Virus record (IMG/VR): IMGVR_UViG_3300012663_000495
Coordinates: 1-27,551 of that record
Length of the DNA stretch: 27,551 nt
Source of the DNA: a virus
Taxonomy: Duplodnaviria; Caudoviricetes
Reading direction: 5' to 3' (one strand)
In this document: in pieces, positions 2,419 to 10,240 of the stretch
Layout of the letters: each line of letters starts with the position of its first letter
Position numbering within the stretch: position 1 is the stretch's first letter
Made by a program: the position numbers and the translations under genes
The notes under the pieces: generated by a model
Databases searched by the model: none
Told to the model about the DNA's origin: nothing
What the model saw: the letters and a program-made list of their open reading frames with translations, nothing else

Positions 2419-2697
2419 ATGGACAAACAAGCATTACAAGAATTCTTAGATCTACATGGCGAACTTCGAGCACGTGGTGTTTGGGCTAAGAATCTTAAAA
2501 GAGAAATCAATCACAATGAAGAAACATTGAGATGGACGCCTAAGCCCAAAGAAAAAGCCTGTGAGGATTGTGAACTCACAGTAAAAGATCGTATAATAGA
2601 ATATAAGTTGATCAACATTGGACAACCCAATCAACGCTATCAGAAGAAATGTTCGGAATGTAAGCAATATTTGGGTCGTTCTAAGTCAATAGACTAA
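2419..2697 (+). CDS. Zn-ribbon hypothetical protein
   Basis: Two CxxC pairs (CEDC, CSEC). Confidence 0.7.
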   Translation: MDKQALQEFLDLHGELRARGVWAKNLKREINHNEETLRWTPKPKEKACEDCELTVKDRIIEYKLINIGQPNQRYQKKCSECKQYLGRSKSID

Positions 2698-2700
2698 ATA
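2693..2700 (+). promoter_or_regulatory. TAAATA-type promoter (ACTAAATA) for the putative sRNA
   Basis: Overlaps the upstream stop; the RNA closing stem starts 5 nt later. Confidence 0.55.
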
Positions 2701-2705
2701 TTTTT

Positions 2706-2861
2706 GTGAGTGGGCGTATCAAACTCCTTTAAGGCTGTCAATTCTTAATGGAATTCCTTGTTTTATAATTGCCATTTATATTCTCAAAAACCCCACTCAT
2801 ATCTTTCAATTTAGTTCAAACTTGAAGACGGAAAACCCTAGTGCAATACTAGGGTTTTTTT
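2706..2861 (+). ncRNA. Putative structured small regulatory (antisense) RNA
   Basis: GTGAGTGGG (2706-2714) pairs with CCCACTCAT (2792-2800). A second hairpin follows at ~2802-2828, then a terminator. The loop is complementary to 2919-2945. Confidence 0.55.
2832..2861 (+). terminator. Intrinsic terminator, possibly bidirectional
   Basis: AAAACCCTAGT-gcaat-ACTAGGGTTTT stem ending in a T7 run. Confidence 0.85.
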
Positions 2862-2898
2862 ATGGCTAAAATTCCGATATTATAGACCTGATATTTTG

Positions 2899-2912
2899 TG
2901 TTATACTAAATA
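2899..2912 (+). promoter_or_regulatory. Overlapping extended -10 (TGtTATACT) and ACTAAATA box
   Basis: Lies between the terminator and gene 2951; hairpin TGAAT-ggca-ATTCA begins at 2917. Confidence 0.55.
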
Positions 2913-2950
2913 ACATTGAATGGCAATTCACATAAAATTAAGGAAATATA

Positions 2951-3703
2951 ATGCAAAATTCACAAAAAAATCTTACAATTGGTGTAGGTTATAATAATAC
3001 AGATAACAAAGATAATAAAGAAAATAAAGATAAAGCATGTCGAACTAATAATGCTTTTTCTCTTTCTTCGTCTGGCAAAGAGGCTTACGCCTCTTTCTTC
3101 CCGGAAGAACCAATATGCGGGGAGACCCCATCTCGGGCGGAGCCGGACTTGCCTCAGTGTAATTCACAACCTACACCAATTCTAAATGAAGACCTGGTCA
3201 AAAGAGCAGTAATTCAACTTTTTGATAATGGTGAAACCAGTAGTCAACGTTATAAACTAAAACTTAAATTCAATCTGCTAGATGGGGAAAATCCGGAGTT
3301 TGTTGCAAGTCTAACCAAAGACATGCGTAATTTTATGAAGTATATTCCCGAGGATGGTAAAGATGATGTTGTTCATTTTGCCAAACAAATTACTGCAAAT
3401 ATTAAACATCAATTTAACAGCAAACCTTATATTGGTAAGTTCCATTTGAATCAAGGTAAAGGTAGACATATTCATAGTCAAACTGAACCTTATACTGCTG
3501 TAGCAGTTTGGTGGGATCCAGAACATAAAGCATGGGCAGGAGTTATAATGTTTTATGATTGGATGCATCAATTTGATCTATTCAGCGAATATATAACAGA
3601 TGCACAAGCCAAAAATGGTCTTAAAGGTCAAAGTCTTTTTATTAATCCTAAACATGATACAAGAGTAAGACCAAAGACCTGGGCAGAACAAAGGGGATTT
3701 TAA
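2951..3703 (+). CDS. Hypothetical 250-aa protein, possible replication-associated protein
   Basis: AAGGAA RBS. The N-terminal NKDNKENKDK linker is encoded by 9-nt repeats and followed by a hairpin cluster. It is the largest non-structural gene; function is inference only. Confidence 0.6.
   Translation: MQNSQKNLTIGVGYNNTDNKDNKENKDKACRTNNAFSLSSSGKEAYASFFPEEPICGETPSRAEPDLPQCNSQPTPILNEDLVKRAVIQLFDNGETSSQRYKLKLKFNLLDGENPEFVASLTKDMRNFMKYIPEDGKDDVVHFAKQITANIKHQFNSKPYIGKFHLNQGKGRHIHSQTEPYTAVAVWWDPEHKAWAGVIMFYDWMHQFDLFSEYITDAQAKNGLKGQSLFINPKHDTRVRPKTWAEQRGF
3001..3036. repeat. Four imperfect 9-nt tandem repeats
   Basis: AGATAACAA AGATAATAA AGAAAATAA AGATAAAGC. Confidence 0.7.
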
Positions 3704-7174: not shown

Positions 7175-8409
7175 TGCCACTTAGTCCCGCACAACAAACA
7201 ATAGTAGAAAGCCCACAGCGATTTAAGGTAGTAGTTGCTGGCCGACGTTTTGGTAAAACACATCTAAGCATACGTGAACTCTGCTATCACGCACGTATTC
7301 CAGATAGAGAAATATGGTATGTGGCCCCTACGTATAGACAAGCCAAGATGATCACTTGGAAGAAACTACGTAAGAAGTTATTAGAACTTAAATGGGCACA
7401 GAAGATCAACGAAACAGAACTATCAATCCTACTTAAGAACGGTAGCACCATAAGCCTTAAAGGAGCAGACAACTATGATTCACTTAGAGGTATTGGCTTG
7501 GATTACTTGGTCATCGATGAATTTGCAGATATCGATCCTGAAGCATGGTATGAAACTCTTAGACCTACCCTGGCAGACAAACAAGGTGGTGCTTTATTCA
7601 TCGGAACCCCAAAAGGACTCAACTGGGCACACGATCTATATACGCAGGCGTTAGACTACCCTGAAGAATGGGCATCATTCCAATATACCACAATTGAAGG
7701 TGGCAATGTTGCACCAGAAGAAATAGAAGCAGCCAGACGCAGCCTAGATGAACGCACATTCCGCCAGGAGTTTATGGCAAGTTTTGAAACATTCAGTGGC
7801 CGTGTGTTCTATGCATTTGATCGTAAGTATAACCTTAGAGTGTGGGAAGATGCAATACCACAAGAACTACACATAGGCTGTGACTTTAACTTGGATCCCA
7901 TTACAGCAGTAGTGGCCATCAAGTTGGGCACAACACTACAGGTCATAGATGAAATAAAGATATTTGGGAGTAATACAGATGAATTGGTCGATGAAATTAA
8001 AACTAGATTTCCACAAAAAACTATTATTGTTTATCCAGACCCAGCAGGGGCTGCTAGAAAAACGTCGGCTGGCGGTAGAACAGACCATACAATCCTTAGA
8101 GCGGCAGGATTCACAGTAAAATCACCACATGGACACAATGCTGTGCGTGATGGAATCAACGCTGTTAATGCTAAACTACGCAGTTCTGCAGGTATTACAA
8201 GTCTCTATATAGACCCCAAGTGTAAATACGTTATTGAGTGTCTTGAGAAGCAGACATACAAAGAAGGCACCAGCATACCAGATAAGGATAGCGGGTTTGA
8301 TCATATGAACGATGCACTTAGATATATGACAGACTATCTATTCCCCATTAGGCAACCAATACAAAGACCTCCGGTTGCAACCTGGGGACATAAACTCGCT
8401 AGAGTATAA
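7174..8409 (+). CDS. terL: Terminase large subunit
   Basis: Walker A AGRRFGKT, Walker B LVIDE, GTP coupling motif, nuclease acidic motifs GCDFN and DHMNDALRY; TAATG overlap start. Confidence 0.95.
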   Translation: MPLSPAQQTIVESPQRFKVVVAGRRFGKTHLSIRELCYHARIPDREIWYVAPTYRQAKMITWKKLRKKLLELKWAQKINETELSILLKNGSTISLKGADNYDSLRGIGLDYLVIDEFADIDPEAWYETLRPTLADKQGGALFIGTPKGLNWAHDLYTQALDYPEEWASFQYTTIEGGNVAPEEIEAARRSLDERTFRQEFMASFETFSGRVFYAFDRKYNLRVWEDAIPQELHIGCDFNLDPITAVVAIKLGTTLQVIDEIKIFGSNTDELVDEIKTRFPQKTIIVYPDPAGAARKTSAGGRTDHTILRAAGFTVKSPHGHNAVRDGINAVNAKLRSSAGITSLYIDPKCKYVIECLEKQTYKEGTSIPDKDSGFDHMNDALRYMTDYLFPIRQPIQRPPVATWGHKLARV

Positions 8410-10172: not shown

Positions 10173-10204
10173 AGTAAATAACCGTATGGGTGGCTTGCCA
10201 CCTA
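10173..10204 (+). promoter_or_regulatory. AGTAAATA promoter plus 5' hairpin of the scaffold/capsid transcript
   Basis: Intergenic motif followed by GGTGG-CTTG-CCACC. Confidence 0.6.
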
Positions 10205-10240
10205 AGAAACAACTAACTCTGAAAGGGAGGTGAGGCTACG

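Follow-up and report, generated by a model that had tools for sequence, protein, structure and literature searches.

Between the late genes and the early module of the phage genome studied here lies an RNA element that represents a real and previously undescribed family, probably a satellite-type antisense control with new features. The window, as we call the whole 27,551-nt stretch of DNA that was analyzed, carries one copy. The reading that we favor, at a probability of about 0.6, is that a two-loop small RNA is transcribed from a TAAATA promoter by means of a gp55-type sigma factor of a jumbo phage, and blocks translation of both the phage's own message and the head messages of the jumbo phage. 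It draws on the sequence and its predicted fold, on how the element is conserved and how it covaries with the phage's own leader, on its match to the jumbo leader, and on the finding of gp55 in the jumbo genomes and not in the small ones. No prior description of the element was found in the literature searched, coverage of which was partial.

The window is the genome of a small tailed phage of 27.5 kb with nearly all genes on one strand, and it encodes its own structural set: terminase, portal, scaffold, capsid, tape measure and fibres. CheckV estimates its completeness at 92%, and both cut ends share one reading frame, which suggests that nearly the whole circle is present. Searches with 36 proteins of the window and 67 of its relatives gave no match to polymerase, helicase, primase, integrase, endolysin or sigma families, and no lysogeny module was recognized in the window. 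The majority of the non-structural proteins of the window and its relatives belong to no family, so that they could include a sigma or replication factor too divergent to be recognized. The nearest named genomes are DSL-LC06 and the HTVC111P-type pelagiphages (TerL 48-52%, capsid 37-47%). DSL-LC06 belongs to the proposed 'Nanhuiviridae' (PMC10611076); the words 'satellite' and 'promoter' are absent from the available main text of that paper on DSL-LC06. TerS patterns matched about 2,000 IMG/VR stretches, and most of those checked were relatives. In GTDB host genomes the 250-aa gene described below was absent and TerS matches were distant and partial, with no close relative; the small-phage family was not found integrated in these genomes, unlike classical satellites.

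The element is flanked by the last late-region gene (2419..2697, + strand), which encodes 92 aa with two CxxC pairs, and by the first gene of the non-structural module (2951..3703, + strand), which encodes a 250-aa protein with 66 homologues. This protein gave a confident model over residues of about 75-250. It has no family in Pfam, PHROG or NCBIfam, and the model had no PDB match (best VIA Z 5.3), resembled uncharacterised viral proteins only, and found no usable match in the Atlas. BLAST searches of GenBank phages with the element region and with the 250-aa domain gave no match. Neither family nor fold searches produced a Rep match for the 250-aa gene.

The element begins with a TAAATA box (2695..2700, + strand), a T4-late-type core and the predicted promoter of the RNA, the first half of which is the TAA stop codon of the upstream gene. 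An earlier reading made from the sequence alone (the sequence-only reading) had credited the RNA with a promoter box of its own; the TAAATA is indeed present, but there is no sigma-70 promoter beside it. The closing stem (2705..2801, + strand) is predicted to pair 2705-2714 with 2792-2801 by nine Watson-Crick pairs and one G-U pair and encloses 77 nt. This agrees with the earlier proposal of a 9-10 bp stem and a loop of ~77 nt in size, but rather than one open loop two inner hairpins are predicted, with seeds in their tips. Module A (2724..2743, + strand) consists of an anti-SD block, CTCCTT (2724-2729), followed by a seed (2730-2743), the CTGTCA of which is placed by the predicted fold in a hairpin tip at 2735-2742. 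Module B (2754..2776, + strand) is composed of TTCCTT, TTTTAT and AATTGCCATT, complements the phage's own leader at 2919-2945, and has GCCAT in its predicted hairpin tip at 2769-2775. A second, weak hairpin (2804..2827, + strand), with similar sequence in locus L003, is followed by an intrinsic-terminator-like hairpin and T run (2830..2861, + strand), at which an RNA of about 155 nt is predicted to end; both had been correctly anticipated. The terminator is a perfect 11-bp inverted repeat (2832-2842/2848-2858) followed by a T run, and was not reported by a consensus terminator scan of the window. The segment 2702-2863 folds at -41.4 kcal/mol (z -4.0), and 1 of 200 shuffles was equally good. 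The family search that had been suggested as a check yielded no Rfam match in the window at gathering score, C4 (RF01695) included; at E values up to 5 there were seven matches, all far below threshold and none of them C4.

Related loci were retrieved by means of the 250-aa gene, the small membrane protein and TerS. Box, stem and terminator occur together in 18 of the 21 distinct loci that are anchored on the 250-aa gene and have enough upstream DNA; L005, L027 and L038 do not fit the element, and L019, L025, L026, L029, L030 and L037 are cut or rearranged. Scans that also required a seed contributed a further 20 elements, for a total of 38 distinct copies. The closing stem starts 4-10 nt past the TAAATA box in the 18 loci, and 16 of these 18 elements have a stem score of at least 19, compared with 9.5% of 432 TAAATA boxes of jumbo phages. 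All 29 non-redundant 5' stem arms differ in sequence and all still pair; since the elements were chosen for having a stem, this pairing documents free sequence change and not an unbiased rate. The element lies past the last late gene and ahead of the first early leader, and the first downstream gene varies among loci, so that the element belongs to the position and not to the 250-aa gene. The seed GCCATT is found in 15 of the 18 loci, which were collected blind to the seeds (0.85 expected), and CTGTCA in 10 of them (0.6 expected), while the sense versions of both are found in none. The seeds lie in predicted loops, with P(unpaired) of 0.85 (n=20) and 0.86 (n=15) versus 0.42. The order of the modules varies (GCCAT first in 13, CTGTCA first in 6), and CTGTCA is missing from 13 of 29 RNAs. 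An exact-pattern scan of IMG/VR for module B gave no matches.

Several related units were seen. Two contigs of related phages have the terminator, the promoter (window 2854-2914) and the leader start AATGGCA in common and differ in their downstream genes. TAAATA boxes with long stems and without known seeds occur in the early or packaging region at L007:4285-4381 and L020:5611-5672. DSL-LC06 resembles the window in having TAAATA before genes and a box-plus-stem at 1635 (L121:1635-1720; 12-bp stem), but its loop motifs differ, with TTTGCCT present twice. AGGCA-type motifs are found in the leaders of L045, L076, L126, L127, L165 and L200, and also before the jumbo gene for a protein with the motif LEAHVDLC; perhaps these and the TTTGCCT of the DSL-LC06 loop form a second seed-target pair. 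In small genome G009, the first gene past the element encodes a 548-aa protein with no PHROG match (L215:9514-11157, minus strand) and is preceded by short direct repeats, making a candidate replication protein and origin.

The targets of module B in the phage's own leader are the blocks 2919-2928, 2932-2937 and the SD at 2940-2945 (+ strand). The sequence-only reading had described three loop blocks as exact colinear reverse complements of three leader blocks, and all six stand at the positions that it gave; module B thus covers the entire SD of the gene at 2951. The AATGGC at 2919 does not begin the 250-aa gene; it holds the AUG of a putative 24-codon upstream ORF (2920-2994, + strand) that lacks an SD and overlaps the 250-aa start out of frame. 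The small ORF sits right at the predicted 5' end of the leader, and its start is similar to the first gene, of the MAITKLK type, in the relatives L016, L017, L020 and L032.

In 300 dinucleotide shuffles of the loop, carried out for the window alone, a block of at least 10 nt arose in 2% and equal coverage in 6%, and a duplex as stable as -23.7 in 0 of 300. For the window alone, then, the block match is modestly beyond chance, and the duplex stability is rarely reached by chance. Among 5,455 genome windows, taken from both strands, segment 2750-2782 pairs best with 2911-2955, and this start also comes first among the 38 gene starts; when the full 77-nt loop is used, the own leader start comes 3rd of 38.

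Covariation across relatives, the other check that had been proposed, was positive. Each RNA was scored against every leader, and in the 38 loci cognate RNA-leader pairs stood out on four measures (z 5.9-8.1). After L140, the leader of which was mis-defined, and 8 near relatives were dropped and terminators trimmed, 29 loci remained (z 7-8), in which blocks of at least 7 nt covered 14.6 nt of the own leader versus 5.7 nt of foreign leaders (z 8.0). Same-sense, reversed, upstream-coding and downstream-coding controls were null in this set. Independent subsets agreed (z 5.0 for 14 loci anchored on the 250-aa gene, z 6.0 for 15 others). With untrimmed regions the same-sense (direct-repeat) control was also positive in the former subset (z 2.4-3.3); it fell to z 1.2-1.8 on trimming and to between -0.8 and 0.5 in the first 40 nt of the leader. 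Cognate matches are densest within the first 20 nt past the box. Other TAAATA leaders of the same locus, added as targets, gave no significant result (p 0.06-0.28). These data support the prediction of an antisense RNA against its own downstream leader and RBS. The earlier claim to that effect is thus supported among relatives, but it captured about half of the story; module A was missed.

TAAATA occurs 10 times on the + strand of the window and not at all on the - strand. Boxes precede early and structural genes at 2695, 2907, 3970, 6636, 6708, 10175, 12724, 13245 and 22163, and this map recurs in small genomes G005-G009 and in DSL-LC06. The strand bias in the loci of 80 relatives is 386:83, the most skewed of 15 permutations of the hexamer, and in complete small genomes it is found ahead of terS, the scaffold gene and the first early gene. 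In G005, 5 boxes lie before gene starts and the best permuted hexamer has 6, so there is no excess; in HTVC111P, a cultured distant relative, TAAATA is not enriched before genes (8, permutation mean 10). Behind the box at 10175, the leader of the scaffold gene (10175-10240) is long and structured-looking, and is similar in G008 and G009.

According to the available text of PMC3014915, T4 late promoters of the TAAATA form (TATAAATA) require the phage sigma factor gp55. The box of the window RNA has no sigma-70 score and has the features of a T4-type late promoter, a coding-strand TAAATA without a -35 element; however, no member of the gp55 family was found in the window (G000) or in the five complete small genomes G005-G009. 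The family is present in jumbo genomes G001-G003 (E 1e-19 to 1e-25) and was not found in G004, which is 32% complete. The target leader has a tandem promoter (2899..2912, + strand), in which an extended -10, TG-N-TATACT (2899-2907), overlaps TAAATA (2907-2912). A sigma-70-like promoter stands before the target leader in 19 of 29 loci, and at the RNA box in 4 of 29.

The jumbo phages, T4-like genomes of 200-330 kb with TAAATA before many genes, were found via the small membrane protein. In the window this protein (2162-2389) has a LEAHVDLC motif and ~50% identity with a protein of the jumbo clade, and the LEAHVDLC protein pattern matches about 2,100 IMG/VR stretches. The capsid of cultured jumbo relatives is at 67-72%. 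The jumbo head operon encodes, in order, an acidic 335-aa protein without a family, the protease, a coiled scaffold-like protein and the major capsid protein. Its leader starts with TGACAGCC(TT), which keeps a constant distance of 4-5 nt from the box upstream (G001 leader at L222:18529-18556). In 47 distinct leaders, from which duplicates and L274 were left out, we counted TAAATA in 46, GACAGCC in 44, AGGAG in 46, AATGGC in 22 and AGCCTT in 39. These motif data cover loci L244-L323 plus G001 (L222); the 45-47 jumbo loci are related to one another. The leader motif occurs in about 1,100 IMG/VR stretches. An independent IMG/VR scan for the box plus TGACAGCCTT led to the jumbo head leader in 94 of 120 loci, and 63 of these 94 begin Met-Ala.

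Module A complements the 5' end and the SD of this leader. The perfect match of window module A to the 47 leaders averages 10.6 nt (longest 14 nt), and its pairing with them has a mean of -22.4, compared with -11.8 +/- 3.2 for 295 other jumbo starts. Module B, at -9.6, has no match to the jumbo head leaders, and each module is near background on the target class of the other. When the RNA family was compared with 450 gene starts of G001 the head-operon leader ranked 1st, and with the 18 seed-blind RNAs alone it ranked 2nd. Over 29 RNAs the longest match averaged 7.8 nt to head leaders and 6.6 nt to other starts (Wilcoxon p 2e-7, for leaders that are mutually related). Within the window genome, module A (AAGGCTGTCA) has no target leader, and the coding strand lacks TGACAGCC. 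Inside terL, 13 nt (7452-7464) are perfectly complementary to module A, which may be chance; immediately after them come an SD-like sequence and, in a different frame, an ORF of 59 codons (7475-7654).

A target is present in the own first leader for 5 of 21 carriers of GCCATT, 7 of 16 carriers of CTGTCA and 1 of 10 carriers of GGCTGTCA, and some seeds track a variant of the own leader (L126, L149). The 7 CTGTCA carriers, together with L126 and L149, argue that seed A is not purely anti-helper. One may ask whether the RNA is directed at the phage itself and its siblings only, as an early-to-late switch or a C4- or CI-like immunity, with a leader motif common to both phage groups and TAAATA read by the host or by an unrecognized factor of the phage's own. 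Covariation with the own leader, the strongest statistic that we have, speaks for this; so do the start TGACAG of several small-phage leaders (those of the 7 of 16 seed carriers) and the pairing, at -17 to -19, of module A with the leaders of the siblings L173, L003 and L004. We nonetheless consider it unlikely. The seed reaches AAGGCTGTCA in 7 of 38 RNAs, and none of their loci has GACAGCCTT on the coding strand (the whole genome for the window, L002/G005 and L004/G006; the loci for the rest). AGCCTT is present in 39 of 47 jumbo leaders, and the best sibling leader, at -19.1, falls short of the jumbo mean of -22.4.

About 1.0-1.3 kb past the jumbo head leader, the protease gene has the codons AGG-GCT-GTC in 40 of 45 loci and GCT-GTC in 44 of 45, against background codon use of 0.12, 0.30 and 0.10 for AGG, GCT and GTC. 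Of 31 conserved positions, the Ala and Val codons vary least, and the Arg codon ranks fourth. This codon site is the complement of the leader motif (G001 site L222:19738-19748), and the two change in step in L284 and L295 and are both lost in L321. No local fold around the protease site is conserved among the jumbo loci. The simplest reading is that leader TGACAGCC and the protease site would form a native long-range pairing in the jumbo head mRNA. The small-phage seed is a copy of the jumbo protease site AGGGCTGTCA. No RNA encoded by the jumbo phage itself with the same seed was found in G001 or G002. Among cultured jumbo relatives, PA5oct and Vibrio phage 2.275.O have TAAATA and neither TGACAGCC nor the fixed codons, and Phosso has a different gene order.

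That the jumbo phage keeps a complement of its own leader under synonymous constraint suggests a beneficial pairing, and raises the question of whether pairing with the 5'-terminal TGACAGCC stabilizes or activates the message, as the jumbo protease site may do, with the RNA tuning up some of its targets. The density of cognate matches in the first 20 nt past the box would fit such an effect. The modules also cover the SD, however, GCCATT complements the AUG context, and module B of the window spans the whole SD of the gene at 2951, all of which make activation improbable. The repressive sign of the effect is itself deduced solely from the coverage of the SD.

It is also conceivable, if quite improbable, that no free RNA is made, and that module B pairs in cis with the leader on late transcripts that run through the terminator, silencing the early gene on late messages as in T4 gene e (available text of PMC3014915). 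The MFE fold of 2700-2960 does form this long-range helix, and the box coincides with a stop codon. But a cis fold leaves module A unexplained, as well as the closing stem 4-10 nt behind TAAATA in 18 loci, and a strong terminator separates the element from the target. It is very improbable that TGACAGCC is instead a DNA site for a jumbo-encoded protein, with the inverted copies in the protease gene and the small phage as operators or decoys: the motif's fixed distance of 4-5 nt behind the box and the absence of a conserved RNA fold at the protease copy are in its favor, and the matched changes in L284 fit a DNA or an RNA model alike, but the small phages have the antisense orientation only (10/18 vs 0/18), in hairpin tips beside anti-SD and anti-AUG blocks.

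Under the favored reading, a two-loop RNA aimed at both phages, events might proceed as follows. The small phage would be a satellite that needs a co-infecting jumbo phage for late transcription from TAAATA. On entry it would express its early module from a sigma-70-like promoter of the host type. The RNA would be made only once jumbo gp55 is present, while the own early leader could also fire from its sigma-70-like promoter. The loop seeds would nucleate pairing, which would extend over the SD. The phage's own first early gene would be shut off and the core-protease-scaffold-capsid operon of the helper damped, and resources would be diverted from helper capsids. The seed would imitate the jumbo protease site, which probably pairs with the same leader, and escape by mutation should thus be hard for the helper.

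C4 of phage P1 has a closing stem and exposed short seeds that act in trans on the RBS region, and is in this like the element; it lies before the icd/ant antirepressor genes of a temperate phage. Among the genes downstream of the element, most of which have no family, no match to icd or ant was found, and the element differs from C4 in giving no Rfam match, in its seeds and in their varying order. C4 antisense RNA of P1/P7 is Rfam family RF01695 (available text of PMC2864571). P4 CI, as described in the accessible part of PMC4825925, is likewise short and has two separate seeds; it pairs with the phage's own leader and restrains early genes. It is processed from the target transcript, however, and pairs with the flanking seqA (upstream) and seqC (downstream) on that one transcript, with premature termination in lysogens. 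The element comes with a box and a terminator of its own, and its target has a separate promoter further downstream; the segment upstream of the element is coding, and the target lies past the terminator. Copy-control countertranscripts of plasmids come from the opposite strand, are fully complementary and lie upstream of rep, whereas the element is on the same strand, at a separate locus and only partially complementary; moreover, its downstream gene varies and gives no Rep match. The likeness to P1 C4, P4 CI and copy-control RNAs drawn in the sequence-only reading thus does not amount to membership, and nothing indicates copy control.

The closest parallel in function may be SviR of the Vibrio cholerae satellite PLE, an RNA of 160-210 nt that lies between genes, ends in an intrinsic terminator and is induced by helper infection (available text of bioRxiv 10.1101/2022.04.08.487710). 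According to the same text SviR has separate seeds for its own and for helper transcripts, and lowers translation of a gene of the helper capsid region by covering the RBS; in the element both are predictions. The function of SviR has been shown and that of the element is predicted, and we saw no homology between them. As far as that text goes, the element differs in its T4-late-type promoter, in carrying seeds in shuffled hairpin modules, and in a seed that reproduces a site native to the helper mRNA. PLE sits in the chromosome as an island and is packaged with parts of the helper, whereas the element resides in free genomes of 25-36 kb with their own head and tail genes. PLE and PICI satellites are integrated islands with an integrase and borrowed virion proteins; the window has its own virion genes and no integrase match. 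The promoter type of the element and the missing gp55 are consistent with helper-induced expression as in SviR, as judged from sequence. For T4, no small trans-acting regulatory RNA had been characterised, according to the available text of PMC3014915.

We put about even odds on a wider proposal: that a widespread group of free phages of 25-36 kb, which encode their full virion, are satellites of an abundant clade of T4-like jumbo phages, depend on its late sigma factor, and use a modular RNA to silence its capsid operon. The RNA would mimic a hitherto undescribed native pairing of 5' leader and protease gene (~1.1 kb apart), at a site where any change would cost the helper control of its own message. 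If true, this would be a second RNA weapon in the conflict between phages and satellites, after SviR, here in a phage that packages itself. The analysis exposes a constrained pair of sites in the jumbo head mRNA, and provides a sequence-level link between abundant uncultured small phages and the giant phages on which they may depend. Matching of seeds to leaders could pair satellites with their helpers in metagenomes.
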